Under the pieces are notes generated by a model. That model ran no database searches. It saw only the letters and a program-made list of their open reading frames with translations, and had not been told where the DNA came from. A stretch of 64,000 nucleotides of DNA from a candidate division WOR-3 bacterium (lineage in GTDB: Bacteria; Hydrothermota; Tepidihabitantia; SM23-42; JAOAFX01). Shown here in pieces: positions 3,948 to 60,460 of this stretch (position 1 is the stretch's first letter; every line of letters begins with the position of its first letter). The stretch covers positions 637-64,636 of the forward strand of contig CBFGJP010000002.1 in NCBI GenBank assembly GCA_965649105.1. The letters run 5' to 3'. The position numbers were made by a program, and so were the translations under genes.

Positions 3948-3975
3948 TTGACTCATTATGTATTTTAATTATAAT
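3948..3975 (+). promoter_or_regulatory. sigma70-type promoter TTGACT-16-TATAAT; predicted start coincides with ATG 3982 (leaderless)
   Basis: ttgact at 3948-3953, 16-nt spacer, tataat at 3970-3975, ATG 7 nt downstream. Confidence 0.6.
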
Positions 3976-3981
3976 AGAAAT

Positions 3982-6777
3982 ATGACCCCCTTGGTGTTGA
4001 CTTTATTTTTCTTCAATCAATATTTTGGGCAAAACAAAATTCAATATCGTGATTTTAATTTCAAAATTCTTTCCAGCGAGCATTTTGAAATTTATTTTTA
4101 CGCGGGTGGAGAAACTATTGCGCATTTTGCCCAGGATGTACTTGAAGATGGCTATGAACAATTGAGTAAAGATTTTGGCATCGAAGTTGAATTTCGTATT
4201 CCGGTGATACTTTATAATGCACCAAATCATTTTTCGCAGACAAATGTTACTCTCGAACTGATTGAAGAATCGGTTGGTGGTTTTACGGAAATTTTGAAAA
4301 ATCGTATGGTGATACCATTTAATGGTGATTACGAAGAATTTCGCCATGTGCTCATTCACGAGTTAACGCATGTATTTGAGTTTGTAATTTTCTTTCCCTC
4401 AAAACTTGAGGCGCTATTGACGGGAGATCTTTTTTACTCAATACCGCTGTGGGTAATGGAAGGATGTGCGGAGTTTTTTTCTCAGGGCTGGAATCTTGAG
4501 GCAGATATTTATATGCGGGATTTAATTATGCATAATCAGGTAATTCCATTATCAGATCTTGGCAATTATGGTGGTTATATAATATATAAGGAAGGGCAGG
4601 CCTTTTATAATTATGTAAATATCAGATATGGCAGAGAGAAAATCAGTGAATTTATTCACCTTCTTAAATCAAAGAAAAATTTGGAAAATGCATTTGTCAG
4701 CGCGTTTGGTGTCAGTGTTGATGAATTCAATAAACGCTGGATTAAATTTTATCAATTACAATACTGGCCCAAAGTTAAGCTTTCGGAAAATTTCGATAAT
4801 TTTGCGCGTGTTGTCTATGACCATAAAAAAACCCGATCTTTCTATAATACGTCTTCCGCGATATCTCCCAATGGTGATAAAATTGCATTTATCAGTGATC
4901 GTCAGGGAAATGTTGATTTGATTATAATATCAAGTATCGACGGTAGAATTCTGAAAAAACTCATTCGTGCTGAATATTCTTCAGGCTATGAAGGTCTACA
5001 TCTTTATCAAGGTGGCATTAGCTGGTCGCCAGACGAGAAATATATCTGTTTTGCTGCTAAGGCGCGGGGTGATGATGTCCTTTATATAGTAAATGCTCGA
5101 AGCGGAAGAGTGTATAAAAAATTTAAATTAAAACTTAACGGCATATACTCTCCAAAATTTTCACCTGATGGGAAAAAGATTATATTCAGTGGACTTAAGG
5201 ATTCCTATCTTGATATTTATCAAATTGAAATAGCCAGTGGCAGCGTTGAGAGAATAACAAACGATATCTATGCAGATAAATTTCCTGTTATATTTTCAGA
5301 AGACCGAATTGCCTTTGTCTCAGACCGGCCGGATTCCAATGGAAATTATTATTATGGTAGTTATGGTGTTTTCTTGAAAGAAGGAAACGACATTAAAAGA
5401 CTCACGCCACGCGCAACCTACATAGCCTGGCCTTTGTTTAATGCGGACACAGGTATCTACTTCGTTGCTGATTATGACTCAGCCTATAATCTTTATTATT
5501 TTTCATTCAATGCGAATAAAATAGTTAGAAGAACAGATATCCTTACTGGGATTTATTATCCTTCCATTTCCAGAGATTTTCAAAAAATTGCATTCGGGTA
5601 TTATAATGACTATGGCTATGATATTTGTGTTGTGAAAGAGCCACTCAAAAGTATGGTTGAATGTGATTCAATCGAAGTTGAAATTGCTGAAAATTCATAT
5701 AGCGCAGGTGAGCTTAATAACGAAAAAATAAGAAAGTATCGCCTGAAATTTACGCTTGATTATATTGTAGCAAGTGCTTCATATTATACACCACTTGGTT
5801 TCTCCGGAATGACCCAGATTGCCTTAAGCGATATCCTTGGTGACCATCTCATTCAATGCAGCACTGACTTTTATGGGAGTTTATCTTCTTCAGACATATT
5901 TTTTGTTTACTGGTATTTGAAGAAAAGAATGGACTTCGGCTTTGCCTTTTATCAGTATTTGAACTATTTTGCTTCAGGGAATGACCTTGTAATATGGCGT
6001 TATCTTGGTTTAGGTGGTATGGTCCAACATCCATTTACAAAATTTTTCCGAGCCGAACTCGGCCTTTATAAATACAAAATTTATGAAACAAAATGGGTCG
6101 ATTTCTTTGACGATTTTTATTCTGATATATATACAGAAACTTCTTATAATTTCACATATCCTGAACTTTCTTTCATTTTTGATAATGCAAAATGGGGTGA
6201 TACCGGTCCCATAAATGGTGTGCGCACACGCATAACAGGATATACTACTATATTTAGTGATTTTGATATAAAGGTTGGTGTTTTCGACTACCGGCGATAT
6301 TTTAGACTTTCGCCCAGGGCGAGTTTTGCCACCAGATTGGTTTTGGCAGGAAATTTTGGTAAAGAAGATGAACTCTGGTCAATAGGTGGTCCCGGTTCAA
6401 TCCGGGGGTTTGATTATTATACATTTACTGGTACAGATTTAGGATTCTTTAATTTTGAATATCGTTTCCCATTTATAGACCGACTCAGACTGGCATTTCC
6501 AATACCCATGGAAATCAAAAATATCAGGGGAGTTCTGTTTGCTGACTTTGCGGGAATATATTCTGATTCATTTGATGTCTTTGAATCAGCAGAGGGGATT
6601 TTACCAGTTCGCCTCAAAGATGTAAAGATGGGGCTTGGATTTGGATTGCGCTTTAATCTACTTTTCGCAATATTCAAATTAGATTTTGCCCGTTCAAATG
6701 ATCTGCAAAACTGGGTTGATGAAAAGGGCGAACCCTCAAAATGGAAATTTTATCTGACAATCGGCCCCGAATGGTAA
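3982..6777 (+). CDS. Omp85/BamA-family outer-membrane beta-barrel protein with N-terminal HExxH metallopeptidase-like module and TolB-like PD40 beta-propeller repeats
   Basis: HELTHVFEF motif near residue 135. Repeated PD40-like units (SPNGDKIAFISDRQGNVDL; SWSPDEKYICFAA; SPKFSPDGKKIIFSG; EDRIAFVSDRPDSNG). C-terminal approx. 300 aa with alternating amphipathic strands, the Omp85 loop-6 motif IGGPGSIRGF, and a terminal aromatic residue (…TIGPEW). Start moved to ATG 3982 because the track start 3958 lies inside the promoter. Confidence 0.7.
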   Translation: MTPLVLTLFFFNQYFGQNKIQYRDFNFKILSSEHFEIYFYAGGETIAHFAQDVLEDGYEQLSKDFGIEVEFRIPVILYNAPNHFSQTNVTLELIEESVGGFTEILKNRMVIPFNGDYEEFRHVLIHELTHVFEFVIFFPSKLEALLTGDLFYSIPLWVMEGCAEFFSQGWNLEADIYMRDLIMHNQVIPLSDLGNYGGYIIYKEGQAFYNYVNIRYGREKISEFIHLLKSKKNLENAFVSAFGVSVDEFNKRWIKFYQLQYWPKVKLSENFDNFARVVYDHKKTRSFYNTSSAISPNGDKIAFISDRQGNVDLIIISSIDGRILKKLIRAEYSSGYEGLHLYQGGISWSPDEKYICFAAKARGDDVLYIVNARSGRVYKKFKLKLNGIYSPKFSPDGKKIIFSGLKDSYLDIYQIEIASGSVERITNDIYADKFPVIFSEDRIAFVSDRPDSNGNYYYGSYGVFLKEGNDIKRLTPRATYIAWPLFNADTGIYFVADYDSAYNLYYFSFNANKIVRRTDILTGIYYPSISRDFQKIAFGYYNDYGYDICVVKEPLKSMVECDSIEVEIAENSYSAGELNNEKIRKYRLKFTLDYIVASASYYTPLGFSGMTQIALSDILGDHLIQCSTDFYGSLSSSDIFFVYWYLKKRMDFGFAFYQYLNYFASGNDLVIWRYLGLGGMVQHPFTKFFRAELGLYKYKIYETKWVDFFDDFYSDIYTETSYNFTYPELSFIFDNAKWGDTGPINGVRTRITGYTTIFSDFDIKVGVFDYRRYFRLSPRASFATRLVLAGNFGKEDELWSIGGPGSIRGFDYYTFTGTDLGFFNFEYRFPFIDRLRLAFPIPMEIKNIRGVLFADFAGIYSDSFDVFESAEGILPVRLKDVKMGLGFGLRFNLLFAIFKLDFARSNDLQNWVDEKGEPSKWKFYLTIGPEW

Positions 6778-11688: not shown

Positions 11689-12420
11689 TTACATTACCAT
11701 TCCGCCATCAATGGCGATCACCTGACCAGTAATATAGTCTGCCTGGTCCGAGGCTATAAATAGTGCCAGGTTTGCCACATCTTCAGGTTTACCAAACCTG
11801 CCCAAGGGGATTAATTTGAAATAAGCATGTTTTATTTCTTCAGGTAGTTTTTCGGTCATTCTTGTTTCAATGAACCCCGGGGCTATTGCATTTACTGTAA
11901 TATTCCGTGAGGCAAATTCCTTGGCACAGGATTTTGTAAATCCAATTATACCCGCTTTGCTTGCGGCATAATTTGACTGACCGGCATTTCCAATCAAACC
12001 GATTACTGAAGCAATATTAATGATTTTACCAAAGCGTTGTTTCATCATATATTTTACCACTGCCTTGGTCACAAGAAATGTCCCGGTGAGATTGATATTT
12101 ATTACTTTTTCCCAATCTTCTTTCGACATGCGCACAAGTAATTTGTCATTCGTTATACCGGCATTATTAACCAGAATGTCAATCTTTGTAAAATCGTTTG
12201 CGATTTTATCAATGGTTCCATTAACAGAAACTTCGTCTGCGATATTCATATAATAAAAATGTGCCCTATCACCTAAATTTCGTGCAGTTGTTTTACCCAA
12301 TTCAGCATCCACATCGACAATGATAACAACTGCATCATTTTCAATAAATTTATTTGCAATCGCGGCCCCAATTCCACCGGCACCACCAGTGATAAGGGCA
12401 ATCTTTCCATTGAGCATCAT
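11689..12420 (-). CDS. fabG: 3-oxoacyl-[ACP] reductase
   Basis: SDR family: [12 protein letters not shown] Rossmann motif, NNAG, catalytic YAASKAG. Start set to ATG 12420 rather than the track's TTG 12426. Confidence 0.9.
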
Positions 12421-12424
12421 AGTC

Positions 12425-12453
12425 AATTCTATTTAAAATAACCCGATTGTCAA
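12425..12453 (-). promoter_or_regulatory. sigma70-type promoter (TTGACA-17-TAGAAT) for fabG-acpP-fabF-coaE; leaderless
   Basis: Minus-strand ttgaca at 12453..12448 and tagaat at 12430..12425; ATG 12420 about 5 nt after the -10. Confidence 0.5.
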
Positions 12454-12570: not shown

Positions 12571-12598
12571 TTGACAATAAAGATAAATTCAATATAAT
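12571..12598 (+). promoter_or_regulatory. sigma70-type promoter TTGACA-16-TATAAT upstream of ORF 12616
   Basis: ttgaca 12571-12576; tataat 12593-12598; AGGAG RBS at 12607-12611. Confidence 0.6.
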
Positions 12599-12615
12599 AA
12601 TATTCTAGGAGCGTT

Positions 12616-13002
12616 ATGCAAGGAAAGGTCATCTTTGATTACGATGAAAAAAGTAACATAGTCTTTACGGAAGACCACTGGGAGATAAAGACCAAACAGG
12701 ATGTTGATGAATTTTTTGCTGAATATCAAAGATACTTTCAGAAATTGGGTAAAAAAGTATATATGATATCAAATATTGATGACCTTTTAGTCCATGCCGA
12801 AGTCGCTGAGTATTATGGAGAGGTAGCAAAGAATACGGTTTCTATTTATCTCTTGGGTTTTGCCCGTTACGGAACAAAGGATTGGGCAAGGATGACTGTG
12901 CGCACAACTTCTTTGAAGGCAAAATTTTCACCCAACATTTATAGCACACGCGAAGAGGCGATACAGGCGATTGAGAAGCAAAAACAACCAAAATCTGAAT
13001 GA
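12616..13002 (+). CDS. hypothetical protein (128 aa), first gene of a five-gene operon
   Basis: ORF with RBS and consensus promoter; no recognisable family motif. Confidence 0.5.
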   Translation: MQGKVIFDYDEKSNIVFTEDHWEIKTKQDVDEFFAEYQRYFQKLGKKVYMISNIDDLLVHAEVAEYYGEVAKNTVSIYLLGFARYGTKDWARMTVRTTSLKAKFSPNIYSTREEAIQAIEKQKQPKSE

Positions 13003-18325: not shown

Positions 18326-18353
18326 TTGACAAAAATAAAATTATAGATATAAT
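18326..18353 (+). promoter_or_regulatory. sigma70-type promoter TTGACA-16-TATAAT for ORF 18374
   Basis: ttgaca 18326-18331; tataat 18348-18353; AGGAGG RBS before ATG 18374. Confidence 0.6.
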
Positions 18354-18373
18354 CGATATGTAAAGGAGGAAAA

Positions 18374-18853
18374 ATGAGAAAAATCCTTGGGGTAGCAGTT
18401 GTTCTAACAATGCTGAGTGGATTATATGGTTTGACCCTCAGCCTCAGCGGCGCTTATCAGGATATCACCGATGAATACGGGGGAGGTCCATACTTTGGAG
18501 TGAAGGCAGATATTATCGTGGGACTGCTTCCAATTCTTAAGGCACGTGGATTCTTAATGGAGCTTGATTTCAGTGAAGGAACCCCGATGGCGTTTGGGAC
18601 ATTCACCGGTTCAGACCTGTTGATTACTATCCCGATGGCAGCACCGGTTCAGCCTTATGTGGTTGCCGGCTTCTGGTTTGTTAAAGATGCATATATGACA
18701 ATCAGGGGTGGACTCGGTGCAGAGATGGGATTTGGTAATATGAATGGTTATCTTGAAGGACACCTTAACTTCGTTTCGCCTGACCAGGGAGATAGCTATA
18801 TGCCTATCAACATAATGGGTGGCCTCAGATTCCCATTGAAATTAGGATTATAA
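18374..18853 (+). CDS. small secreted / outer-membrane beta-rich protein, function unknown
   Basis: Signal peptide MRKILGVAVVLTMLSG; Gly/aromatic-rich alternating pattern; C-terminal LKLGL. Confidence 0.45.
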   Translation: MRKILGVAVVLTMLSGLYGLTLSLSGAYQDITDEYGGGPYFGVKADIIVGLLPILKARGFLMELDFSEGTPMAFGTFTGSDLLITIPMAAPVQPYVVAGFWFVKDAYMTIRGGLGAEMGFGNMNGYLEGHLNFVSPDQGDSYMPINIMGGLRFPLKLGL

Positions 18854-18981: not shown

Positions 18982-20622
18982 TTAAAATACTGCCGCGACC
19001 GGCATTCTCCTTCCCAATCCAAATGCCTTTGATGTAACCTTTAATACAGGTGGTGCCTGCCGCCTTTTATATTCATTTTTATTTACTGCCTTTATTACCC
19101 AATTTACAACTTCTTCTTTATAGCCTTTTGCTACAATTTCTTCTTTTGAAAGGCCATCTTCAACATAAAATTGCAAGATCGGGTCAAGGATTTCATAGGG
19201 TGGTAGGGTGTCCTGGTCACACTGGTTGGGTTTTAATTCAGCAGAAGGCAGCTTCTTGATAATCGTCTTGGGAATTATTTCTTCTTTGCGATTGATGAAT
19301 TCAGCAATCGCATAAACCATTGTCTTGGGCACATCTCCAATCACCGCCAGACCACCGCTCATATCGCCATAGAGTGTGCAATAACCAACCGCAAGTTCAC
19401 TTTTATTTCCCGTTGTTAAAACCAGATAACCAAACTTATTTGAAAGCGCCATTAAAATATTACCCCTTATTCGTGCCTGAATATTTTCTTCGGTGGTATC
19501 AGATGCTTTACCTTCAAAAACATCTTTTAATGTCTTGAGATATGAATCATAAATATCAGTTATCGGAATTACTTTTAATTCAATCCCTAAATTTTCAGCA
19601 AGTTTCTTAGAATCTTCAACACTTCCTGCGGAAGAGAATGGTCCAGGCATTGTTATGCCCAGGACATTATCTTTTCCGATTGCCTCAGCAGCAATGCAGG
19701 CAACAACTGCGGAGTCAATCCCACCGGATAATCCCAGAATCGCCTTTTTAAATCCACATTTCTTCATATAATCACGCACACCGAGAACGAGGGCATTGAA
19801 AACGCTTTCAATATGACCAAGTGGTGAATAGTTTTTTGATGCCCCTTTTGAATGAATCTCAATGGTCTTTATACATTCGCCAAATGGAAGCAGAACATCT
19901 ACCGGATTGCCATCTTTATCTACCATCATACTCCTACCATCAAATATTAATTCATCATTTGCACCGACTTGATTCACAAAAACAAATGGTAGGTGATATT
20001 TTTTTGCATAACTTTGGATAATCTTATAACGAATCTCTTCTTTACCCATTGTAAATGGTGATGCAGAGATATTTATCAAAATGGTTGCCCCTTTTTGCAC
20101 AAGTATTTCAATCGGGTCAATGTCATAAATCTGTCTATACCATAACTCCGGAATATTCCAGGCATCTTCACAGATAGAAATTCCGATTACTTCGTCTTTA
20201 AATTTAATTGGCTTTATTTCATCTGCCGGGTCAAAATATCTTGCCTCATCAAATACATCATAAGTGGGTAAAAGAGATTTATGTTGAATATGATTTATCA
20301 ATCCGCAGTGAATGAAAATTGCTGAATTATACAACCCTCTTCCGGTATTTTTGTGAGAAAACATAGGTGCACCAAAAATGATCCCGAGATCAGGATAAAA
20401 TGAAGATAGTTTAAGGATTTCCTCTATTGCTTTTTCAATCTTTTTAATAAACCATTTTCGTTCGAGCAAATCCTGGGGTGGATAGCCCGAGAGAAATAAT
20501 TCAGAGAAAACAACCAGATTACTATTTTCCGTCTGTGCCTGTTTTATCGTCTGGATTATTTTCTCAAAGTTACCATCTATGTTGCCGACAACTGGATTTA
20601 ACTGGGCAATAGTAATTTTCAT
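18982..20622 (-). CDS. nadE: glutamine-dependent NAD+ synthetase
   Basis: 546 aa. N-terminal nitrilase/CN-hydrolase domain (…VVFSELFLSGYPP…CEDAW). C-terminal NAD synthase PP-loop LGLSGGIDSAVV. Confidence 0.9.
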   Translation of the reverse strand: MKITIAQLNPVVGNIDGNFEKIIQTIKQAQTENSNLVVFSELFLSGYPPQDLLERKWFIKKIEKAIEEILKLSSFYPDLGIIFGAPMFSHKNTGRGLYNSAIFIHCGLINHIQHKSLLPTYDVFDEARYFDPADEIKPIKFKDEVIGISICEDAWNIPELWYRQIYDIDPIEILVQKGATILINISASPFTMGKEEIRYKIIQSYAKKYHLPFVFVNQVGANDELIFDGRSMMVDKDGNPVDVLLPFGECIKTIEIHSKGASKNYSPLGHIESVFNALVLGVRDYMKKCGFKKAILGLSGGIDSAVVACIAAEAIGKDNVLGITMPGPFSSAGSVEDSKKLAENLGIELKVIPITDIYDSYLKTLKDVFEGKASDTTEENIQARIRGNILMALSNKFGYLVLTTGNKSELAVGYCTLYGDMSGGLAVIGDVPKTMVYAIAEFINRKEEIIPKTIIKKLPSAELKPNQCDQDTLPPYEILDPILQFYVEDGLSKEEIVAKGYKEEVVNWVIKAVNKNEYKRRQAPPVLKVTSKAFGLGRRMPVAAVF

Positions 20623-20628
20623 TTTGTA

Positions 20629-20657
20629 ATTATAATAAATATAATCTTTGAAGTCAA
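20629..20657 (-). promoter_or_regulatory. sigma70-type promoter TTGACT-17-TATAAT for nadE; leaderless
   Basis: Minus-strand ttgact 20657..20652, tataat 20634..20629, ATG 20622 six nt after the -10. Confidence 0.55.
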
Positions 20658-22118: not shown

Positions 22119-22325
22119 CTATTTCCTTGGATGTTCCGGGTCTGGCACGCAGGCACCAACCGGACAGACTGATGCACACTGCGGTTCATCAAAATGACCC
22201 ACACACTCCACACACTTATTGAAATCAATGACATATATTGGGTCGCCTTCGCTTATTGCCTGAACCGGACATTCTGGTGCACAAAGCCCACAGGCTGTGC
22301 AATCTTCGGTAATCTTATAAGCCAT
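22119..22325 (-). CDS. 2[4Fe-4S] ferredoxin
   Basis: 68 aa with two Cys clusters ([12 protein letters not shown] and [18 protein letters not shown]). Confidence 0.9.
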
Positions 22326-22349
22326 TTTACCTCCTTTAGAAATTGAGAG

Positions 22350-22377
22350 ATTATATATAAATTTCTGCCAATGTCAA
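22350..22377 (-). promoter_or_regulatory. sigma70-type promoter TTGACA-16-TATAAT for ferredoxin gene (leadered, strong SD)
   Basis: Minus-strand ttgaca 22377..22372, tataat 22355..22350, AGGAGG before ATG 22325. Confidence 0.6.
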
Positions 22378-26888: not shown

Positions 26889-26895
26889 CCCTTAA

Positions 26896-39285: not shown

Positions 39286-39289
39286 ATTA

Positions 39290-39720: not shown

Positions 39721-39725
39721 TACTA

Positions 39726-39753: not shown

Positions 39754-39760
39754 TTGCAGA

Positions 39761-40678
39761 ATGGATAAACAAAAGAAGGCATATATTTTTGCACTAATTG
39801 TAGTTTTGTTTTGGGCGACCGTTGCTTCAGCATTTAAGATTACACTTAGATATCTAAATTTTATACAATTAGTATTCTGGTCATCTTTTACTTCAATGAT
39901 TGTATTATTCTGTATATCTTTGTTTGAAAGACAGATAAAACAATTTTTAACAACATTCAAAAAAGGTTGGTTAAATTCTTTATTCCTCGGGTTCCTCAAT
40001 CCATTTCTCTACTATCTTGTTCTTTTCAAAGCATATTCTTTATTGCCCGCTCAGCAGGCACAGCCATTGAACCAAACCTGGGCAATTATTCTCGCATTTC
40101 TTTCCGCAATTATACTTAAACAGAAGATTGGATTAAAAAGTATCGTTGCTCTTTTTATAAGTTTTTCTGGGGTGCTTTTAATATCAACCCGTGGTGAATT
40201 GACTGCCCTTAAATTTTCCAGTGTCCCTGGCGTATTGCTGGCCTTAGGAAGTGCTTTTATCTGGGCATTTTACTGGATATTGAATGTAAAGGACCCGCGT
40301 GACCCGATTATAAAACTCTGTACAAATTTTGTTTTCGGTACATTTTACATTTTAATATCAATGTTAATAGTAAAAGAAAAATTCTTTCCCAATTCATACG
40401 GTATTATTGGCGGAATCTATATCGGTATTTTTGAAATGGGGGTGGCTTTCTATTTCTGGCTTAAGGCATTAAGTCTGTCGAGAACAACTGCGAAGATTGG
40501 CAATATGGTTTATCTGGTTCCATTCCTTTCCCTCATTGTTATTAGATTGACTGTGGGTGAAAGGATTTTGCCTGCTACAATCTTTGGTTTAATCTGTATC
40601 GTCATTGGAATATTTATTCAGCAGTATAATTTCAATCAGCGAAAGAATACGAATAATAGGATGCTCGATATTAAATAA
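39761..40678 (+). CDS. EamA/DMT-family transporter
   Basis: 305 aa, ten TM helices in two EamA-like halves. Confidence 0.75.
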   Translation: MDKQKKAYIFALIVVLFWATVASAFKITLRYLNFIQLVFWSSFTSMIVLFCISLFERQIKQFLTTFKKGWLNSLFLGFLNPFLYYLVLFKAYSLLPAQQAQPLNQTWAIILAFLSAIILKQKIGLKSIVALFISFSGVLLISTRGELTALKFSSVPGVLLALGSAFIWAFYWILNVKDPRDPIIKLCTNFVFGTFYILISMLIVKEKFFPNSYGIIGGIYIGIFEMGVAFYFWLKALSLSRTTAKIGNMVYLVPFLSLIVIRLTVGERILPATIFGLICIVIGIFIQQYNFNQRKNTNNRMLDIK

Positions 40679-43263: not shown

Positions 43264-43291
43264 TTGACTTTAACTAAAAATTGGGTATAAT
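43264..43291 (+). promoter_or_regulatory. sigma70-type promoter TTGACT-16-TATAAT for porGDAB, with structured leader of about 95 nt
   Basis: ttgact 43264-43269; tataat 43286-43291; leader hairpin ACCCTG…CAGGGT at approx. 43333-43356; AAGGAG RBS. Confidence 0.55.
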
Positions 43292-43392
43292 AAATCGAAA
43301 AAGACATTTCCTAAAAAGGACGATTATATTCAACCCTGCTTTAATTCAACAGGGTAATTATTTATAGATTAACTTTAAAAAAGGAGTAAATA

Positions 43393-43971
43393 ATGGCAAT
43401 GCTTGAAATAAGATGGCATGGACGGGGTGGTCAGGGTGCAAAGACTGCTGCCTTGCTCTTTGCCGATGCAGCAGTAGAGACTGGAAAATATATTCAGGCT
43501 TTTCCTGAATATGGTCCGGAAAGGATGGGTGCACCGGTATTTGCATTCAACCGGCTTTCAGATAAACCCATTCTTCAACATTGTGGCATTAAAAATCCGA
43601 ATATTGTCGTGGTTCTCGATCCAACTTTAATGGAGACAATTGATGTTACAGAAGGAATAGCGGAAAATGGAATCATTCTGGTTAATACCCAGAAGACGGC
43701 GCAGGAAATAAGAGAACAACTGAAGATAAAGAGTGATAAAATTAAGGTATATGTTGTGGATGCGAGTAAGATTGCAAAAGAGATTTTAAAGAGGGATATT
43801 CCCAATACACCGATGCTGGGCGCATTAATTAAGGTTTCAAAACTTCTTGAATTTAAACCTATGCTTGAGTCAGTAAAAAAGAGGCTTGAACACAAATTTC
43901 CAAACCGTCCCGATGTGGTGGAAGGTAATATTAAGGCAATAGTTCGTGCCTATGAGGAGGTAAAAGAATGA
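43393..43971 (+). CDS. porG: pyruvate:ferredoxin oxidoreductase gamma subunit
   Basis: 192 aa, GRGGQGAKTAA…family pattern. Confidence 0.9.
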   Translation: MAMLEIRWHGRGGQGAKTAALLFADAAVETGKYIQAFPEYGPERMGAPVFAFNRLSDKPILQHCGIKNPNIVVVLDPTLMETIDVTEGIAENGIILVNTQKTAQEIREQLKIKSDKIKVYVVDASKIAKEILKRDIPNTPMLGALIKVSKLLEFKPMLESVKKRLEHKFPNRPDVVEGNIKAIVRAYEEVKE

Positions 43972-46398: not shown

Positions 46399-46440
46399 TT
46401 ATCACTCTTGAACTGCCTTGGTTCTTTCTGTCAATAAACT

Positions 46441-47055
46441 ATGTTAAAAGTTATCATCTTTGATCTTGACGGGACCTTATACACCAGTGCCGAGGTCTAT
46501 CAAAAATTTGCTCAAGCAGCATACCATACATACGCAAAATTAAAGAAATCAACCATTGAACAGGCAAAGGAGATTCTTGAGAAACGCAGAGAAGAGATGA
46601 AAAAAGAAAGAGGTTATGCAGTCCCTTACACCCTTGCCCTCCTGTCATTTGGGATTCCGATTGAAGAATGGCATAAGGAGAATATAAAATTTTTTAATGC
46701 GGGTGATTTTTTAATGAAAGATGAGGTATTAAAAAAAATTTTAACAAAACTTAAAGAAAAATACAAACTTGCAGTATTTACCAATAACAACAAAATTCAA
46801 ACTGAAAGAATTTTAAAGGCACTGGGAATAGAAAAATTATTTGATTACATCTTTACTTATGAAAGCTTTGAACTCATCAAACCAAACCCAGAAGTTTTTA
46901 AAAAGATCATAAAAGAACTAAAAGTTAAACCTAACGAATGTATGATGGTTGGAGACCGGTATTATGTTGACCTTCTGCCGGCAAAAGAACAGGGGATGGA
47001 GATACATGAAGTTAAGGGTCCGGAAGACATTTCTGAATTATTAGAAATCCTTTAA
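46441..47055 (+). CDS. HAD-superfamily hydrolase (subfamily IA)
   Basis: Motif I IIFDLDGTL at the N-terminus; motif IV MVGDRYYVD. Confidence 0.8.
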   Translation: MLKVIIFDLDGTLYTSAEVYQKFAQAAYHTYAKLKKSTIEQAKEILEKRREEMKKERGYAVPYTLALLSFGIPIEEWHKENIKFFNAGDFLMKDEVLKKILTKLKEKYKLAVFTNNNKIQTERILKALGIEKLFDYIFTYESFELIKPNPEVFKKIIKELKVKPNECMMVGDRYYVDLLPAKEQGMEIHEVKGPEDISELLEIL

Positions 47056-47146: not shown

Positions 47147-47174
47147 TTGACTTTAACCAGATTCGGTCTATAAT
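47147..47174 (+). promoter_or_regulatory. sigma70-type promoter TTGACT-16-TATAAT for the secreted TldD/TldE-like gene pair
   Basis: ttgact 47147-47152; tataat 47169-47174; AAGGAGG RBS. Confidence 0.6.
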
Positions 47175-47196
47175 TTAAATCATTAAGGAGGTTTTG

Positions 47197-48867
47197 ATGA
47201 AAAAATTAATGATTTCTTTAATTCTGACATTTCTAATTGCTGGCTTTGCAGAGAATGTGGTTCTTAATACAATGTCAAATGAGCTGAATCGTTCTTACCG
47301 TATTCTTGGCAAACAAAAGCCATACCCACTTTATTTTCTACAATATGAGATAATGGACGAACACCAGGTATTTATCCTGGCATCATTGGGTGCAATTACC
47401 GAAGACTATGAGCAGAAACACCGCTATCTTGATGTAGATGTTAGAATTGGTTCATGCCGGCTCGATAATACCCATGAAATTAGGGGGGCAGAAGAGTATG
47501 ATTGGTGGAAATCACCGGTTGAAGTCCCGATTGATAATAATGGCGATGCATTACGTTTGCTCTTATGGGCAGAAACGGATAAAAAATTCAAAGCAGCGCA
47601 GGAAAGGTACATAAAAATTATTAATGAAAGACAGGTGAAAGTTTTAGAAGCAGATACATCACCTGATTTTAGTGTTGCACCAAAAGTGATTTATGAGGGA
47701 AATCTTGATACAATTATTTTTGATAAAGAATTGTGGAAGGCAAAACTTCGTAGACTATCAAACATTTTTAAAGATTATCCATGGATCTACAACTCCCGCG
47801 TCGCACTTCGGGCGAATTCTTTGACCAAGTATCTTGTAAATACTGATGGCACAAAATTAGTTCACAATAAAATTGGTTATTATCTAAATATTTACGCTGA
47901 GACAATGGCTGATGATGGAATGGAACTCTATCTTAGTTATCCGGTTTATGTGAGAAATCTTAAAGATATGCCTGATGAAGAGATTTTAAAAAGCTATACT
48001 GATTCTTTGATTCAAAATTTATATGCATTAAGAAATGCGCCGATGGTTGAACCATATTCAGGACCTGCAATTATGATGAATCGTGCGTGCGGTGTATTCT
48101 TTCATGAAATTTTTGGACATCGGATTGAAGGGCATAGACAGAAGAGCGAATTTGAAGGGCAGACATTCACGAAAAAATTGAATGAAAGGATAATGCCTGA
48201 ATTTATTTCGGTATATGATGACCCTACGATGGAAAGATATGGAAATCAGGATTTAAATGGTCATTATCTATTTGATGATGAAGGGGTAAGGGCACAGAAA
48301 GCAACGATAGTTGAAAATGGAATACTGAAATGTTTTTTAATGAGTAGATCACCAATCGCAAATTTCCCATCTTCAAATGGCCATGGTAGAAGACAATATG
48401 GCAGAAAGGTTGTAGCACGCCAGGGTGTTCTGTATATAAAGTCAAGCAATGAAGTTCCTTTTGAAAAATTACGCAATGCATTAATTGAGGAATGCAAAAG
48501 GCAGAATAAGCCATATGGTCTTATCTTTTATGATATTTCCGGTGGATTTACTACTACTGGTAGAGAGGGACCACAGACCTTTAAAGTCATTCCCCTGTTA
48601 GTAAAAATGGTCTATGTAGATGGCAGACCGGATGAGGTTGTGAGAGGTGTTGATATTGTTGGAACACCGCTTCTTTCGCTATCAAAAATTATTCTAACCG
48701 GTAATGACTACGATATTTTTAATGGAACCTGTGGTGCAGAGTCAGGATGGGTTCCGGTCTCGGCGATTGCCCCTTCCATTCTGGTCTCTGAAATTGAGGT
48801 TGAAAAAAAGGCAAAAGGTCAGGACAAACCGCCGATTTTACCTGCACCAGGTGAATCATCAAGATAG
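47197..48867 (+). CDS. secreted TldD-like metalloprotease (HExxxH present)
   Basis: Signal peptide MKKLMISLILTFLIAGFA; HEIFGHRIEGH motif; C-terminal PmbA/TldD domain (…SNGHGRRQ…). Start set to ATG 47197 (track start is TTG 47194). Confidence 0.75.
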   Translation: MKKLMISLILTFLIAGFAENVVLNTMSNELNRSYRILGKQKPYPLYFLQYEIMDEHQVFILASLGAITEDYEQKHRYLDVDVRIGSCRLDNTHEIRGAEEYDWWKSPVEVPIDNNGDALRLLLWAETDKKFKAAQERYIKIINERQVKVLEADTSPDFSVAPKVIYEGNLDTIIFDKELWKAKLRRLSNIFKDYPWIYNSRVALRANSLTKYLVNTDGTKLVHNKIGYYLNIYAETMADDGMELYLSYPVYVRNLKDMPDEEILKSYTDSLIQNLYALRNAPMVEPYSGPAIMMNRACGVFFHEIFGHRIEGHRQKSEFEGQTFTKKLNERIMPEFISVYDDPTMERYGNQDLNGHYLFDDEGVRAQKATIVENGILKCFLMSRSPIANFPSSNGHGRRQYGRKVVARQGVLYIKSSNEVPFEKLRNALIEECKRQNKPYGLIFYDISGGFTTTGREGPQTFKVIPLLVKMVYVDGRPDEVVRGVDIVGTPLLSLSKIILTGNDYDIFNGTCGAESGWVPVSAIAPSILVSEIEVEKKAKGQDKPPILPAPGESSR

Positions 48868-50763: not shown

Positions 50764-51972
50764 TTATTTCTTTAAATTAAATTTTGTCAGGAGTACATTA
50801 ATTGCTTCCTCAAGGAATTCTTTCTTTAAGAATATGTTGATTGATAATTCTGATGTGGTGACTGCTTCAATGTGTGTCTTGATCTTTGAAAATTCTTTAA
50901 AGATATCGGCTAAAATCTTATTTTCAGAACCGATTCCTGCACCAATAATACTCAATGAACTGATGTCAAGGGATTCTTTTATCTCTTTTATCTTTAATTT
51001 TCTTGCCAATTTCCCGATTATTTTCTTAACCAATTCTTTTTCCTCAAGGGGCGTGATAAATGAAAGATCAAAGCGTGGTGCATCAGAGATTCCGTGGAAG
51101 AAGAATTTTAGATGGACGCCGGCTTTTGTTAATTCGGTTGTAACCTGAGATAGATATTTTGGATTTTTTGGAACCTGGACAAGGGTTATTAAATACAGTC
51201 CTTCACTATGTGTGATTGCCTTGGGTTTTGGATGTTCCATACCATTTATATGGGTGATAAGTGTACCTGCTTTATTATTAAAACTATTTTTTACTTCAAT
51301 GGGAACACCAAATCTTGCACCGATTCCAGTTGCCCTTGGATGTAAGACCTTTGCCCCACGACTGGCAAGTTCAAGCATTTCTTCGTAGGATATTTTATCG
51401 ATCTTTTTCACTCCCGGAAATCTATTCGGGTCCTCGGTGAATACACCATCCACATCCGTATAAATAATACATTTTTGTGCATTCAAAGCGGCAGCAATGG
51501 CAACCGCAGTCGTATCAGAGCCACCCCTGCCTAATGTTGTTATTTCTTTTTCAAAACTCACACCTTGGAATCCACAGACCACAGGAACAAAACCCTGGCT
51601 TAATGCGTTTTTTATCCTTTCATCACGAATTTCAATTATCCTGGCGTCGGTATGACGGTTATCCGTAATTATCCCAACCTGTGAACCAGTAAATGAAATC
51701 GCCTTTAATCCCCATTTTTGCAACGCCATTGTGAATAGTGCAACTGAGATTCTCTCGCCAGCGGTGAGGAGCATATCCATCTCCCTTGCCTTAGGGTTTT
51801 TTGTTATTTGATTTGAGAGTTTAATCAATTCATCCGTCGTATGCCCCATTGCCGAAACCACGACAACTACATCATTATCTTTTTTCATCTTTGCCACGCG
51901 TTTTGCTGCCTTCAATATGAGTTGCGCATCAGCAACCGATGTTCCACCAAATTTGACAACAGAAAGACGCAT
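50764..51972 (-). CDS. lysC: aspartate kinase
   Basis: KFGGTSV N-terminal motif, amino-acid kinase fold, two C-terminal ACT domains. Confidence 0.9.
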   Translation of the reverse strand: MRLSVVKFGGTSVADAQLILKAAKRVAKMKKDNDVVVVVSAMGHTTDELIKLSNQITKNPKAREMDMLLTAGERISVALFTMALQKWGLKAISFTGSQVGIITDNRHTDARIIEIRDERIKNALSQGFVPVVCGFQGVSFEKEITTLGRGGSDTTAVAIAAALNAQKCIIYTDVDGVFTEDPNRFPGVKKIDKISYEEMLELASRGAKVLHPRATGIGARFGVPIEVKNSFNNKAGTLITHINGMEHPKPKAITHSEGLYLITLVQVPKNPKYLSQVTTELTKAGVHLKFFFHGISDAPRFDLSFITPLEEKELVKKIIGKLARKLKIKEIKESLDISSLSIIGAGIGSENKILADIFKEFSKIKTHIEAVTTSELSINIFLKKEFLEEAINVLLTKFNLKK

Positions 51973-51978
51973 CCTTGG

Positions 51979-52006
51979 ATTATATAAATTTTTAAAAAAA
52001 GGTCAA
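51979..52006 (-). promoter_or_regulatory. sigma70-type promoter TTGACC-16-TATAAT for lysC; leaderless
   Basis: Minus-strand ttgacc 52006..52001, tataat 51984..51979, ATG 51972. Confidence 0.5.
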
Positions 52007-54456: not shown

Positions 54457-54495
54457 GCATAATTGACATTTATCAAATAATCAATAAACTTCCAT

Positions 54496-55746
54496 ATGCT
54501 CGACCTTTTTAAGAAAAAGGGCATCTTATTCCTTACATTATCCAATGGGACATCCCAATTAGGCGACAGGTTAACCCATATGGTTATAATCACGCTCATC
54601 GGTGTAAAATACCCGGGTAAAATCTCTACCTTCAGTGAATTTGCCATAACCTTTTCTCTCCCGGTAATAATCCTTGCACCATTTGTTGGTGTGATTGTTG
54701 ACCACTGGAATCGACAGACCATAATGTTTCACTGCCATTTAATCCAATCAATTTTGATTTTTTTAACACCGAGTTTTGTGGTTTTGTTTAATAGTTTCAT
54801 ACCAATATGGATCCTTGTCTTTGTCTTCTTTGCACTCGATGTCTTTAATAACACCGCCAAGAATGCAATCGTTCCGGATTTAGTTGAATATAATGAACTT
54901 GTTTCGGCAAATTCTTTTATTATAACAATTGCCCGTATTGCCACATTTTTAGGAATGGTGGGCGGTGGTTATTTAATAAAATGGGTGGGCTGGAGATTGG
55001 GATTTTATCTTGATGCAAGCACCCATCTTATTGCTGGTTTCCTGGCACTCGGGATTGGTGCAAGAATATTATTTGAACCATCAGCAAAGACTGAAATATC
55101 ACTTAAACAGAAATTAAAAGAATCATGCCGAATTTTTTTGCTGGATTTAAAGGAATTAATAAATTTGCTATTTCGCGACCGGGTCGTTATGTTCGTGATG
55201 ATTTCAGTATTTATCCTGCCTTTTTCTGCCGCAATTGCTTATACTGTGCTTATATATCTAATCCAGCAAACATTCAATATGGGAACATCTGGTGTAGGTT
55301 GGTTGGGTGGCATAATCGGTGCCGGGATGTTTTTGGGGGGAGTTCTTATGGGATTTTTGGGAAAGAGAGTAAATCGGCCCTCGATAATAATCTGTAGTAT
55401 GACGGTTTTATCTTCTTTTTTTATCATAGGTCCATTTTTTATTACACCCATATTTTTATATTCAATTGCATTTGTTTCGGGAATGGTATTTTCTTTTGTG
55501 GGTATTGCCCAGGATACGATCTTACAGGAAGATGTTATGAAATCAATCAGGGGTAGAATGTTTGCAACAAAGGAATTTGTTATAAATTCTGCTTTTCTTA
55601 TCTGTGCCGGTGGGATTGGATTGATTTCAAATATTTTAAAGCCATTCACCATTCTCAGATTCACGGGTGTAATAATCGGATGCTTAACGATCCTTGCTAT
55701 TTTTATCTTACATTCCATACCCGCTCAGGAGAGAAAAAGACTATAA
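54496..55746 (+). CDS. MFS transporter
   Basis: 416 aa, 12 predicted TM helices, MFS loop motifs. Confidence 0.75.
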   Translation: MLDLFKKKGILFLTLSNGTSQLGDRLTHMVIITLIGVKYPGKISTFSEFAITFSLPVIILAPFVGVIVDHWNRQTIMFHCHLIQSILIFLTPSFVVLFNSFIPIWILVFVFFALDVFNNTAKNAIVPDLVEYNELVSANSFIITIARIATFLGMVGGGYLIKWVGWRLGFYLDASTHLIAGFLALGIGARILFEPSAKTEISLKQKLKESCRIFLLDLKELINLLFRDRVVMFVMISVFILPFSAAIAYTVLIYLIQQTFNMGTSGVGWLGGIIGAGMFLGGVLMGFLGKRVNRPSIIICSMTVLSSFFIIGPFFITPIFLYSIAFVSGMVFSFVGIAQDTILQEDVMKSIRGRMFATKEFVINSAFLICAGGIGLISNILKPFTILRFTGVIIGCLTILAIFILHSIPAQERKRL

Positions 55747-55757: not shown

Positions 55758-55785
55758 TTTACAAACTTAGAAATATTGGTATAAT
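55758..55785 (+). promoter_or_regulatory. sigma70-type promoter TTTACA-16-TATAAT; leaderless at ATG 55791
   Basis: tttaca 55758-55763; tataat 55780-55785; ATG 6 nt later. Confidence 0.5.
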
Positions 55786-55790
55786 TCTCT

Positions 55791-57200
55791 ATGTTTATCA
55801 GAGGGAAAAGAATAATTAGAGAAAAAAAGATTGGTGTGATAAATCCTTATAATAATTACCTGATAGAGGAAATCGGATTGAGCACAGAAAAGGATGTTAC
55901 TGAAGCCATTCAGATTGCCCAAAAAGGGTTTAGTATACTCAAAAATATCACGGCAGGAGAAAGAGCAAAAATTCTTGAACGAACCGCCAAGATAATTTCT
56001 GAAAAAAAAGAGGATTTTGCCCGAACGATCTGCCTAGAGGTCGGAAAAACAATAAACGAGGCGAGGACAGAGGTTGAGCGCGCAATAAATACGATAAAAC
56101 TATCAAGTATGGTAGCAATGAGCCTGAAAGGCGAAACCGTCAGAATGGACCTCAGCGGTTCAACGAAAAAAATGGGATTTTACCTGCGGGTTCCCTTGGG
56201 AATAGTGCTTGCAATTTCGCCGTTTAATTTTCCTTTAAATTTGAGTTGTCATAAAATTGGACCGGCAATAGCCGCGGGTAATTCGGTTATATTCAAACCC
56301 GCTACAAAGACTCCACTCTCGGGCTTGATGCTGGCGCAGGCCCTCATTGAGGCTGGATTACCAGAAGAAGGGATTTCAGTCCTTGTTGGTCCGGGTTCAA
56401 CCATTGGAATGGCATTGGTGCGGGCACCGGAAATTCGAAAGGTGAGTTTCACCGGTTCATTAGAAGTTGGAGAAACGATTATGGCTAATTGTGGTATGAA
56501 GAAAGTGACAATGGAACTCGGTTCAAATTCAGCAGTGGTTGTATTTAAAGATGCGCCATTAAACCTTGTTGCAAAAAAGATTCGTAAGGGTGGTTATACA
56601 CTTGCTGGACAGGTATGTATTTCAGTTCAACGGGTATATGTGGAGGAAGCAATAGCAGAAGAATTTTTGAGAGAATTATCGCTTGAGGTCGGTCAAATAA
56701 AATATGGTGACCCGATCCATGAAGATACAGAAATGGGTCCGATGATTGATGAATCTGCATTAAAAAAGGCAGAAGAATTCGTTGAAGATGCCAGGAAACA
56801 TAAAGGCATATTGATTCTTGGTGGTTCAAGATTGGGAAATATCTTTTTACCGACAATCATTTTTGATGTTGATGAAAATGCGAAGATAATTCAGGAAGAG
56901 GCATTTGCCCCAATGGTGAGTGTGAACAAATTCAAAACTATTGATGAGGCGATTGGGAAGGTCAATAATACAAAATATGGACTCCAGACCGGGATATTTA
57001 CAAAAGATATAAATCTTGCTTTGAAATGTGCTAAAGAGATTGAATCCGGTGGTGTATTAATAAATGAAATACCAACATTCCGCGTTGATAATATGCCTTA
57101 CGGTGGTATGAAGGGTAGTGGATTGGGCAGAGAAGGACCGGAATTTGCGATAAAGGAAATGACGGAAGAAAAATTGATTATTTTTGACGAGATAGAATAG
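55791..57200 (+). CDS. NAD(P)-dependent aldehyde dehydrogenase family protein
   Basis: ALDH motifs: catalytic Glu in MELGSNSA, catalytic Cys in GQVCISVQR, and EEAFAPM. Confidence 0.85.
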   Translation: MFIRGKRIIREKKIGVINPYNNYLIEEIGLSTEKDVTEAIQIAQKGFSILKNITAGERAKILERTAKIISEKKEDFARTICLEVGKTINEARTEVERAINTIKLSSMVAMSLKGETVRMDLSGSTKKMGFYLRVPLGIVLAISPFNFPLNLSCHKIGPAIAAGNSVIFKPATKTPLSGLMLAQALIEAGLPEEGISVLVGPGSTIGMALVRAPEIRKVSFTGSLEVGETIMANCGMKKVTMELGSNSAVVVFKDAPLNLVAKKIRKGGYTLAGQVCISVQRVYVEEAIAEEFLRELSLEVGQIKYGDPIHEDTEMGPMIDESALKKAEEFVEDARKHKGILILGGSRLGNIFLPTIIFDVDENAKIIQEEAFAPMVSVNKFKTIDEAIGKVNNTKYGLQTGIFTKDINLALKCAKEIESGGVLINEIPTFRVDNMPYGGMKGSGLGREGPEFAIKEMTEEKLIIFDEIE

Positions 57201-58298: not shown

Positions 58299-59228
58299 TT
58301 AAAGACCTTTATAAAGCCTTGCGAGTGCCTTGAGTACGAGATAATGCTCACGCGCCGGAATACCCGAATATTTTTTCCCGGGAGCAAGGTTTGAAAAGAC
58401 TGCACTCTTTGCATAAATTACGGCATTTTCTCCGACTTTTAAATGGTCGCTTATACCACTTTGACCACATATTATTACATTATCGCCGATCTCGGTTGAC
58501 CCGGCAATACCCGCCTGTCCCATAATAAGACAGTTCTTTCCAATATGGACATTGTGGGCAACATGGACGAGATTGTCAATTTTTGTGCCTGAACCGATTA
58601 TCGTCTTCCCAATCGTTGCACGGTCAATACAAACATTGGAACCAATTTCAACATAATCTCCGATTACGACATTACCAATATGGGGTATGCGTTTATAATT
58701 TTTTAATTTTATATATCCAAACCCTTCTTTACCAATAACTGAATTTGCACTGATATGAACATAATTCCCGATAATTGTCTTTCTATATATTACTACATTA
58801 TGCTCAATTGTGCAATAATCACCAATAATAACATCTTCATCAATGTAAACACCACTTCCAAGATAACAACCCTTTCCAATTCTTGCCCCCCTTTTTATGA
58901 TTGCGTAGTCTTCAATTGTAGTGGAACCAAAAATCTTGGCATCGTTTGCAATTATGGCGGTTGCGGCAATAGTGGTATCCCTTTTTAAATTTGAAATGCT
59001 TTTGAGTAAATAATACATTGCCTTTTTGCAATTTTTTACTACAATGCAGTTTTTATTAACGATTCTTACTTCAGAAATCACTGCACCCGCCTTTGTTTGC
59101 AATTTAGTGTTGAATAAGAAAGTAATACTATTTTTATTAGCCTCTTCAGGTGGTAAAATGGCTTTTACTTCAATGTTTTTACCATAAACTTTACCTTTAA
59201 TAATTCGCGCAATTTGGCTTAATCGCAT
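58299..59228 (-). CDS. lpxD: UDP-3-O-acylglucosamine N-acyltransferase
   Basis: Left-handed beta-helix hexapeptide repeats through the C-terminal two-thirds; LpxD N-terminal domain. Confidence 0.85.
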
Positions 59229-59233
59229 ATTCT

Positions 59234-59261
59234 ATGCTATCCAATACAGAGTGTATGTCAA
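59234..59261 (-). promoter_or_regulatory. putative promoter TTGACA-16-TAGCAT for lpxD-lpxC (leaderless)
   Basis: Minus-strand ttgaca 59261..59256; tagcat 59239..59234; ATG 59228. Confidence 0.35.
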
Positions 59262-59278: not shown

Positions 59279-59306
59279 TTGAAATCTTTTATATTTTGGA
59301 TAAAAT
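59279..59306 (+). promoter_or_regulatory. promoter TTGAAA-16-TAAAAT; leaderless at larC ATG 59312
   Basis: ttgaaa 59279-59284; taaaat 59301-59306; ATG 6 nt later. Confidence 0.4.
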
Positions 59307-59311
59307 TGATT

Positions 59312-60460
59312 ATGAGGATAATATATTTTGATCCGATACTCGGTGCAAGTGGTGATATGATCTTGTCAAGTTTAATAGACCTTGGTGTTGATAAAGATTA
59401 TTTGAAAGAATCATTAAAATTCATTCCTGATTTAAAGATCAAGGTTGAAAAAGTCTCACACTCTGGGATCAGAGCAAAGCAGATTGAATTTATTACAAAA
59501 AAGGTTGTAAAAGAAAAAGATTTTATCCCCCTAATAAAAAAAAGTGATTTAAAAGATTCTATCAAAAACGACGCAATAAAAATTATTAGCCGTATATTTG
59601 ATGCGGAAAAAAAAGTTCACGGTGCACGGCATCTACATCTCCATGAACTTGCAGATGTTGATACAATAATTGATATAACTGGCGCACTCATTGCCCTTGA
59701 TTTTTTAAATGTTGATAAAGTATATTCACGAACCCTGAAAGCAGGAATGGGATTGATTGATACTGTTGAAGGAAAGATGCCGGCATTTAATCTTGCCACT
59801 GCTCAATTGTTAAAGGATACCCCGGTTGAATTTTTGCCCATACCATTTGAGTTTACTACACCCACTGCGGCAGCCATATTGAGCACAATCGCTGAATTTA
59901 AAGATGCTTTGATGATAAACAAAATTGAAAGAATTGGACTTGGTGCTGGTACCAGGAAAATAGCTGGGTATCCTAACCTTTTAAGGGCTTTTCTTGGTGA
60001 GGTTGATTCGGGTTTCAGCGATGAATGCCTTGTAATTGAAACAAACATTGACGACCAGAACCCTCAGGATTTTGAATTAATATTGGAAAAATTATATCAG
60101 GCGGGTGCGCTTGAAGTGTTTTATACGCCCGTGATAATGAAACATTCGAGGCCCGGGATCTTGCTTAGTGTGATAGCCGAAAGTTATAATCAGAAAATAA
60201 TAGATACGATTTTTAATGAAACGACAACCCTCGGTATAAGGATGGACTATAGAAAACGAATAAAATTAAATAGGGAGATAAAAAAGATAAAAACACCCTG
60301 GGGCGATTTGCGGATAAAAGTCTCTAATTTTAACAGAAGTAAACGATTCACGATAGAATATCAGGATTTGAAATCGATAGCAGGGAGATTGAATAAACCG
60401 ATAAGATATTTAAGAATAGAAATTGAAAAATATGTCAGCAAAGAAGGGCTCGTTGATTGA
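59312..60460 (+). CDS. larC: LarC-family nickel-pincer cofactor nickel insertase (DUF111)
   Basis: N-terminal MRIIYFDPILGASGDMILSSLIDLGVD signature of LarC/DUF111. Start at ATG 59312 rather than 59234. Confidence 0.75.
   Translation: MRIIYFDPILGASGDMILSSLIDLGVDKDYLKESLKFIPDLKIKVEKVSHSGIRAKQIEFITKKVVKEKDFIPLIKKSDLKDSIKNDAIKIISRIFDAEKKVHGARHLHLHELADVDTIIDITGALIALDFLNVDKVYSRTLKAGMGLIDTVEGKMPAFNLATAQLLKDTPVEFLPIPFEFTTPTAAAILSTIAEFKDALMINKIERIGLGAGTRKIAGYPNLLRAFLGEVDSGFSDECLVIETNIDDQNPQDFELILEKLYQAGALEVFYTPVIMKHSRPGILLSVIAESYNQKIIDTIFNETTTLGIRMDYRKRIKLNREIKKIKTPWGDLRIKVSNFNRSKRFTIEYQDLKSIAGRLNKPIRYLRIEIEKYVSKEGLVD

Follow-up and report, generated by a model that had tools for sequence, protein, structure and literature searches.

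Near-consensus sigma-70-type promoters set 5-7 nt before ATG codons point to leaderless transcripts in a candidate division WOR-3 genome

How is a gene translated when its promoter ends only a few nucleotides before its start codon? The question is raised by a 64,000-nt stretch of DNA (37.5% GC; the window, below) on contig CBFGJP010000002.1 of a candidate division WOR-3 bacterium. A sequence-only reading of this window had listed 11 units in which a TTGACA-like -35 box and a TATAAT-like -10 box, 16-17 nt apart, are followed after 5-7 nt by the start codon, with no Shine-Dalgarno (SD) motif, and had taken them to be leaderless. We scanned the whole window for this layout, curated the matches, and read all 60-nt regions upstream of the claimed start codons. 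Twelve transcription-unit heads carry a TTGACA-like/TATAAT-like promoter, then 5-7 nt, then an ATG, without an SD motif (Table 1). The observation is real and lies far above chance. From the sequence we infer where transcription starts and how translation begins: these are very probably genuine sigma-70/RpoD-type promoters, placed such that transcription would start on the A of the ATG, give or take one nucleotide, and yield leaderless mRNAs.

Among the 12 strict cases only nadE has a spacer of 17 nt, the other 11 having 16 nt, so the range of 16-17 nt given previously is better described as almost always 16 nt. The gap between the -10 box and the ATG is 5-6 nt in 10 of the 12. Nine of the 11 units listed in the sequence-only reading hold, the layout being present on reading the coordinates at 3982+, 12420-, 20622-, 26896+, 39761+, 51972-, 55791+, 59312+, and 59228-. 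The other two fail the 5-7 nt rule. At the M6 protease (28835) the promoter is perfect and the gap is 11 nt, while at the HAD hydrolase (46441, listed as probable) the promoter scores 6/12, the best alternative scores 7/12, and the layout is not conserved. The HAD site (46408..46443, +; TTGAAC-N17-TCAATA) was rejected as a leaderless promoter, its orthologs in three relatives (L002, L003, and L004) showing GTG, an SD-like sequence, or no motif. Nor was the list complete: three cases had been overlooked, at 3904-, 26783- (a 12/12 promoter), and 54496+. A weak call at fabF (ATG 11436; 9/12, N15, gap 4), the sole one at an operon-internal gene, is a false positive; an overlooked acpP gene (11433-11672, -) overlaps the fabF start by ATGA.

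Promoter-like sequences are more frequent in the window than in first-order Markov shuffles: we observed 9 perfect 12/12 matches where 0.07 are expected, and 21 matches of at least 11/12 where 2.9 are expected. At a loose threshold of at least 9/12 the enrichment is mild, with 90 matches versus 67.9 +/- 7.4, and thus only the high-scoring matches (at least 10-11/12) are informative in such AT-rich DNA. The complete layout (promoter at least 10/12) is found at 11 of 55 gene starts versus 7 of 2181 other ATGs (Fisher p=2e-14), and at 1 of 375 in-frame internal ATGs and 2 of 237 intergenic non-start ATGs. Over 2000 shuffles of the gene upstream regions, the layout turned up 0.23 times on average and never more than 3 times. 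The sequence-only reading had named, as what would count against it, a motif no commoner near starts than in a shuffled background; this is clearly not the case (11 of 55 versus the shuffle mean of 0.23). The distance from the -10 box to the start of the open reading frame (ORF) peaks sharply at 5-7 nt, both in the window (9 matches) and in WOR-3 loci (32 matches), and no such peak appears in the control loci (1.07 Mb of Nitrospirota). Both hexamers are near consensus and the spacer falls within the 17 +/- 1 bp of sigma-70-type housekeeping promoters, shifted to 16 nt; about half of the sites also have a TGn extended -10.

The comparison loci came largely from a genome scan with LysC, in which the closest relatives are candidate division WOR-3 metagenome-assembled genomes (MAGs) at 63-91% identity; the current NCBI name of this phylum is Caldifarciminota. 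The same scan supplied the controls (Nitrospirota and others, ~43% LysC identity), and the larC relatives were drawn from a metagenome scan. All but one of the 12 WOR-3 genome loci contain leaderless-type sites, the exception being L004, where lysC is truncated by the contig end. The lineage has a GC content of 36-42%, and one WOR-3 genome with leaderless-type sites is at 51% GC. In front of lysC the promoter is kept in all 12 loci (11 from WOR-3 and one from a metagenome) as TTGAC/TTGAT-N16-TATAAT, 5-7 nt, ATG, while the bases between the -10 box and the ATG vary from locus to locus. Because the spacing is kept and the intervening bases are not, the constraint appears to be on position rather than on sequence.

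Other genes behave similarly. The larC promoter is conserved in nine of nine close relatives (70-85% identity, 36-39% GC), with a gap of 5-6 nt in five, and the lpxD promoter in four of four, with its unusual TAGCAT as -10 box and a gap of 5 nt in L081, L082, and L087. Conservation extends to the EamA transporter gene (4/4: L085, L086, L088, and L089, each with a gap of 5 nt), the aldehyde dehydrogenase gene (-10 box and 5-nt gap in 2/2: L082 and L087), and the MFS transporter gene (2/2: L003 and L005). Genes led by an SD motif stay SD-led in the relatives. Distant LarC homologs (at most 53% identity) have coding sequence upstream instead, and no peak. A GTG site at position 1613 of L006 that had been scored as leaderless is actually the promoter of the SD-led ortholog of the 18374 unit. 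Further afield, the lpxD ortholog of a metagenome locus (L091; 46% GC, 52% LpxD identity) carries TTGACA-N17-TACGAT, 5 nt, and GTG; close WOR-3 relatives may therefore not be the only ones with the leaderless-type layout, and GTG may serve in it as well.

An internal calibration of the transcription start is provided by a gene whose product has a recognizable 5' end. Class A RNase P RNA (Rfam, 302 bits) directly follows a perfect promoter of the same type. The Rfam model begins at the 6th nt after the -10 box (a 5-nt gap). At the 7th nt, G39292, the P1 stem opens with GGGGUGG, which pairs with CCACCCC. Leaderless-type genes have the A of their ATG at these two positions, the 6th for a gap of 5 and the 7th for a gap of 6. 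Since RNase P RNA begins at this distance (6-7 nt) from a promoter of the same type, +1 would be placed at the A of the ATG. Transcription initiation prefers a pyrimidine at -1 and a purine at +1. T precedes the ATG at 18 of 27 non-redundant sites (p=2e-4), and this enrichment of T(-1)/A(+1) fits the rule.

Leaderless-type promoters coexist with conventional ones. All 12 cases stand at transcription-unit heads, in divergent or at least 37-nt intergenic positions. An SD core of at least 4 nt is found in none of the 12 genes versus 21 of 43 other genes (p=0.0017), which supports the dual leaderless/SD strategy proposed in the sequence-only reading, with the layout at operon heads only. The SD-led units named there (the ferredoxin, the por operon, 18374, the TldD pair, and the 12616 operon) were all confirmed. 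The leaders of SD-led units are mostly short (a gap of 17-32 nt after the -10 box), with ~95 nt in the por operon, and operon-internal genes use SD motifs or 4-nt start/stop overlaps. Among protein-coding units, we count 12 as strictly leaderless-type, 2 as near-leaderless (28835, gap 11; 54420-, gap 8), 8 as SD-led with a mapped promoter, 1 as leadered without SD (32466-), and ~7 as unclear. Thus 12 of ~30 protein-coding units (~40%) in the 64-kb window are leaderless-type, and the site density is similar in 168 kb of relatives.

The argument depends on correct start codons. No possible start codon precedes the ATG within the ORF in 9 of the 12 leaderless-type genes, and Pfam profiles start within 1-6 residues of the ATG in FabG, NadE, LysC, LarC, and EamA: position 1 of adh_short lies at residue 6 of FabG, position 1 of CN_hydrolase at residue 2 of NadE, position 3 of AA_kinase at residue 4 of LysC, position 1 of Ni_insertion at residue 4 of LarC, and position 2 of the EamA profile at residue 6. 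In the aldehyde dehydrogenase, profile position 7 is at residue 12. Of the 12 ORFs, three reach upstream past the true ATG, as the sequence-only reading had said of several. For larC this is verified: in all 23 homologous loci with a start codon at the aligned position, the protein begins M-[KR]-x-x-Y-F-D at the place of ATG 59312, so that the longer ORF from 59234, which adds only 26 unmatched residues, is wrong. For 3982 it is plausible only, the upstream ATG 3958 lying inside the promoter spacer. At fabG (12420) the sole upstream alternative is TTG 12426, two codons upstream and overlapping the last -10 base. Although GTG and TTG were allowed, ATG is the start codon at 43 of 45 sites, in agreement with the AUG dependence of leaderless translation.

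If these promoters work as their position suggests, RNA polymerase would begin on the A of the ATG, the 6th or 7th nt past the -10 box, or no more than one nucleotide away from it, and the mRNAs would lack both a 5' untranslated region and an SD motif. The ribosome would then have to recognize the 5'-terminal AUG directly, through the leaderless initiation pathway. Most of the remaining units share this promoter type, with a leader that contains AGGAGG downstream of it. Alternatively, the promoters could be real and transcription could start 1-4 nt upstream of the ATG, giving very short leaders in place of strictly leaderless mRNAs. Polymerase can shift its start site by one or two nucleotides, and longer gaps do exist: 7 nt at yidD, 8 nt at the 54420- unit, 11 nt at the M6 protease, 9-10 nt in larC relatives, and 8 nt in one lpxD relative. 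However, gaps of 5-6 nt leave no room for such a leader, a start 6-7 nt after the -10 box being the A itself; the RNase P calibration yields the same distance, and T(-1)/A(+1) is enriched. We therefore consider this alternative improbable, and by our own reasoning leaders so short, with no room for an SD motif, would presumably be translated like leaderless mRNAs anyway. Could the TATAAT-like box instead enhance translation, as an AT-rich segment of a leadered mRNA that is unstructured or binds S1, with the promoter further upstream and initiation independent of SD, as in Bacteroidota? The genome is rich in AT (37.5% GC), and a role as S1 sites has been considered for AT-rich signals in front of non-SD genes (PMC5397173). 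Yet a TTGAC-type -35 box lies exactly 16 nt upstream of the -10 box in 43 of 45 cases, this composite element also stands before RNase P RNA and, at other distances, before SD-led genes, the motif is absent from operon-internal non-SD genes, and three divergent pairs with 77-112 bp intergenic regions have no room for other promoters; an enhancer is very unlikely. We give still less credence to an artefact, whether chance in AT-rich DNA or true start codons lying downstream or upstream of the chosen ATGs. The mild enrichment at the loose threshold and the spurious fabF and HAD calls do speak for it, but high-scoring matches are 7- to 130-fold enriched, the difference from other ATGs has p=2e-14, family-profile N-termini and homolog alignments fix the starts, and genomes whose proteins are 63-91% identical share the layout.

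Some points weigh against placing transcription starts at the ATG and against generalizing from them. The larC gap is 9-10 nt in four relatives, which would mean leaders of 2-4 nt, and the lpxD gap is 8 nt in L084; the arrangement thus appears to drift between 0-nt and 2-4-nt leaders. A start at the 6th nt after the -10 box (gap 5) is less favoured in E. coli. The position matrix is biased, as its sites were selected on consensus match, and the sample is one 64-kb window plus ~265 kb of relatives' loci rather than whole genomes. Within the paper library that was searched, no paper mentions both "leaderless" and "WOR-3", and none mentions Caldifarciminota. With these points counted, leaderless mRNAs from sigma-70-type promoters remain the reading that we favour.

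Table 1. Promoters and start codons of the transcription units discussed (gap, distance from the -10 box to the start codon; element coordinates are those of the window)
Unit	Start codon	Element (strand)	Promoter	Gap	Remarks
Na/Ca-exchanger gene (2909-3904)	ATG 3904	3902..3938 (-)	TTGACT-N16-TATAAT	6 nt	Pfam Na_Ca_ex; ATG is the ORF's first start codon
931-aa Peptidase_MA_2/PD40 protein	ATG 3982	3948..3984 (+)	TTGACT-N16-TATAAT	6 nt	back to back with the 3938- promoter, 77-bp intergenic region
fabG	ATG 12420	12418..12453 (-)	TTGACA-N16-TAGAAT	5 nt	heads fabG-acpP-fabF operon
nadE	ATG 20622	20620..20657 (-)	TTGACT-N17-TATAAT	6 nt	
DUF4159 gene	ATG 26783	26781..26817 (-)	TTGACA-N16-TATAAT (12/12)	6 nt	heads operon 26783->22403
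yidD	ATG 26896	26861..26898 (+)	TTGCAT-N16-TATAAT	7 nt	weak -35; Pfam YidD
EamA transporter	ATG 39761	39727..39763 (+)	TTGATA-N16-TAAAAT	6 nt	
lysC	ATG 51972	51970..52006 (-)	TTGACC-N16-TATAAT	6 nt	
MFS transporter	ATG 54496	54463..54498 (+)	TTGACA-N16-TAAACT	5 nt	
Aldehyde dehydrogenase	ATG 55791	55758..55793 (+)	TTTACA-N16-TATAAT	5 nt	
lpxD	ATG 59228	59226..59261 (-)	TTGACA-N16-TAGCAT	5 nt	
larC	ATG 59312	59279..59314 (+)	TTGAAA-N16-TAAAAT	5 nt	
M6 protease	ATG 28835	28796..28837 (+)	TTGACA-N16-TATAAT (perfect)	11 nt	near-leaderless; predicted leader ~4-5 nt without SD
12616 operon	ATG 12616	12571..12618 (+)	perfect	17 nt	SD-led, TAGGAG; SD conserved in L005
18374 unit	ATG 18374	18326..18376 (+)	perfect	20 nt	SD-led, AAGGAGG
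68-aa 4Fe-4S ferredoxin	ATG 22325	22323..22377 (-)	perfect	24 nt	SD-led, AAGGAGG
TldD/PmbA pair	ATG 47197	47147..47199 (+)	TTGACT-N16-TATAAT	22 nt	SD-led, AAGGAGG; SD conserved in relatives
POR operon	ATG 43393	43264..43395 (+)	TTGACT-N16-TATAAT (43264-43291)		SD-led, AAAGGAG; leader ~95 nt
Unit 32592				19 nt	SD-led
Small ORF 2842				24 nt	SD-led
Unit 43177				32 nt	SD-led
RNase P RNA (39291-39721)		39258..39721 (+)	TTGACA-N16-TATAAT (perfect), 39258-39285		calibration unit

Both genes are leaderless-type in three divergent pairs (intergenic regions 3905-3981, 26784-26895, and 59229-59311), and the back-to-back promoters of these pairs occupy nearly the whole 77-112 bp between the genes. In the 3905-3981 pair, the -35 boxes are 9 bp apart. 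The rightward gene of this pair (3982-6777, +) had been labelled an Omp85 chimera; Pfam gives Peptidase_MA_2 (residues 56-256) and PD40 beta-propeller repeats instead. The gene after it (6741-7979) encodes a solute-binding protein.

The same promoter type also drives stable-RNA genes, being found at RNase P RNA and upstream of tRNA-Ile. At tRNA-Ile(GAT) (21872-22065, -), the perfect promoter lies ~84 nt upstream of the mature 5' end, and a second, weaker promoter (TTGACG-N18-TATAAC) lies ~13 nt upstream of it. Orphan perfect promoters were considered as drivers of small leaderless ORFs, but most of them turned out to belong to the SD-led ferredoxin, an SD-led small ORF, tRNA-Ile, or RNase P RNA. 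One short unit on the reverse strand (54276-54456, continuing to 53944) has a perfect promoter (54456-54429), 8 nt, and ATG 54420, which opens a 32-codon hydrophobic ORF, followed by a strong intrinsic terminator (54305-54276). Beyond the terminator come AAAGGAGG and ATG 54236 of a 63-aa basic ORF, and then a CHASE4-PAS-GGDEF gene. The promoter, ATG, terminator, and downstream SD are conserved in L003, with 83% column identity. Rfam returned for this unit only a sub-threshold match to BTnc231 (25 bits versus a gathering score of 80), and its fold has a z-score of -2.0. The unit could be an attenuator/leader peptide, or a cis-regulatory RNA or small RNA.

Elsewhere in the window, two listed starts are probably wrong. 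Upstream of ATG 41754 (41754-41886, -) the DNA is conserved like coding DNA in L003, L086, L088, and L089, and TTG 44180 (44000-44180, +), which is CTG in relatives, lies inside a conserved 4Fe-4S (POR delta-like) coding stretch. In the 311-aa ORF 38294-39229 (+), MFS_1 is not matched until residue 145 (profile position 6), and an odd sequence, TATTATATAATGGA, directly precedes the ATG; this may be a truncated, fused, or mis-started transporter gene.

The 16-nt spacer is nearly exclusive among the strong promoters of this lineage. Across the window and the WOR-3 loci (L001-L012 and L081-L089), 97 of 113 strong matches (at least 11/12; 86%) have it, in leaderless, SD-led, and RNA-gene promoters alike. 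In the control phyla, 5 of 40 strong matches do, and spacers of 17-18 nt dominate. The measured spacer optimum in E. coli is 17 bp (PMC12641261), and our literature search found no paper reporting a lineage-wide 16-bp spacer. Such strictness may reflect a slightly different geometry of sigma and RNA polymerase.

Correct gene-start calls are the main use of these results. Gene callers tuned to SD motifs can misplace leaderless starts in WOR-3 MAGs, and LarC, for example, would gain 26 spurious residues. The promoter rule TTGAC-N16-TAnAAT-5/7-ATG offers a simple start correction and a marker of operon heads, and the unusually information-rich WOR-3 promoters make it feasible to predict promoters and operons from DNA sequence. 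If the reading holds, an uncultivated low-GC phylum would join the leaderless-rich bacteria, so far mostly high-GC Actinobacteria and Deinococcus-Thermus, and leaderless-rich expression may be more widespread, and possibly more ancestral, in uncultivated phyla than surveys of cultured isolates indicate. Current understanding is not overturned; the phylogenetic spread of leaderless genes and the 16-bp spacer are of mild interest.

How does this arrangement compare with known systems? Like the sigma-70/sigma-A promoters of E. coli and Bacillus (TTGACA-17 bp-TATAAT), the WOR-3 promoters have the same hexamers and a predicted start 6-7 nt after the -10 box, but their spacer is 16 nt rather than 17. 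Bacteroidota and the wider FCB group, 90% of which fall into group B of the GeneMarkS-2 classification, also have many genes without SD and an AT-rich signal near the start codon; in group B, however, this signal also precedes internal operon genes and so is no promoter (PMC6028130), whereas in WOR-3 it is restricted to operon heads and coupled to a -35 box. WOR-3 also uses strong AGGAGG sites, unlike group B. The FCB group has distinct sigma-AB promoters. WOR-3 has lipid-A biosynthesis genes and is presumably diderm.

The closer likeness is to group C of the same classification, in which the first genes of operons have a Pribnow box a few nucleotides ahead of their starts, 25-50% of operons are predicted to be leaderless, and the other genes rely on SD motifs, an organization typical of Actinobacteria (90%) and Deinococcus-Thermus (97%) (PMC6028130). 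As in Mycobacterium tuberculosis and Deinococcus deserti, the -10 box stands near first-in-operon starts and SD motifs serve elsewhere, here with 12 of ~30 units in the window being leaderless-type. The gap is 5-7 nt in WOR-3 versus the 6-8 nt reported for group C, and M. tuberculosis has a bare TANNNT where WOR-3 has a near-consensus -35 box as well as the -10 box. Composition differs too: group C genomes using code 11 are almost all high-GC (MetaGeneMark-2 preprint), whereas the WOR-3 lineage is at 36-42% GC. Judging from the survey's use of RefSeq, WOR-3 was presumably not among its ~5000 genomes. The broadest claim, which we hold tentatively and think slightly less probable than its negation, is that WOR-3 (Caldifarciminota), a low-GC phylum outside Actinobacteria and Deinococcus-Thermus, uses leaderless initiation for ~40-50% of its operons with a housekeeping holoenzyme of shifted geometry, whose spacer optimum would be 16 bp and whose start would fall 6-7 nt beyond the -10 box. 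The leaderless strategy itself is known in bacteria and will not surprise a specialist, though it was not earlier reported for the WOR-3 phylum. The predicted arrangement is the leaderless architecture already described for group C bacteria, here in a further phylum, one of low GC.

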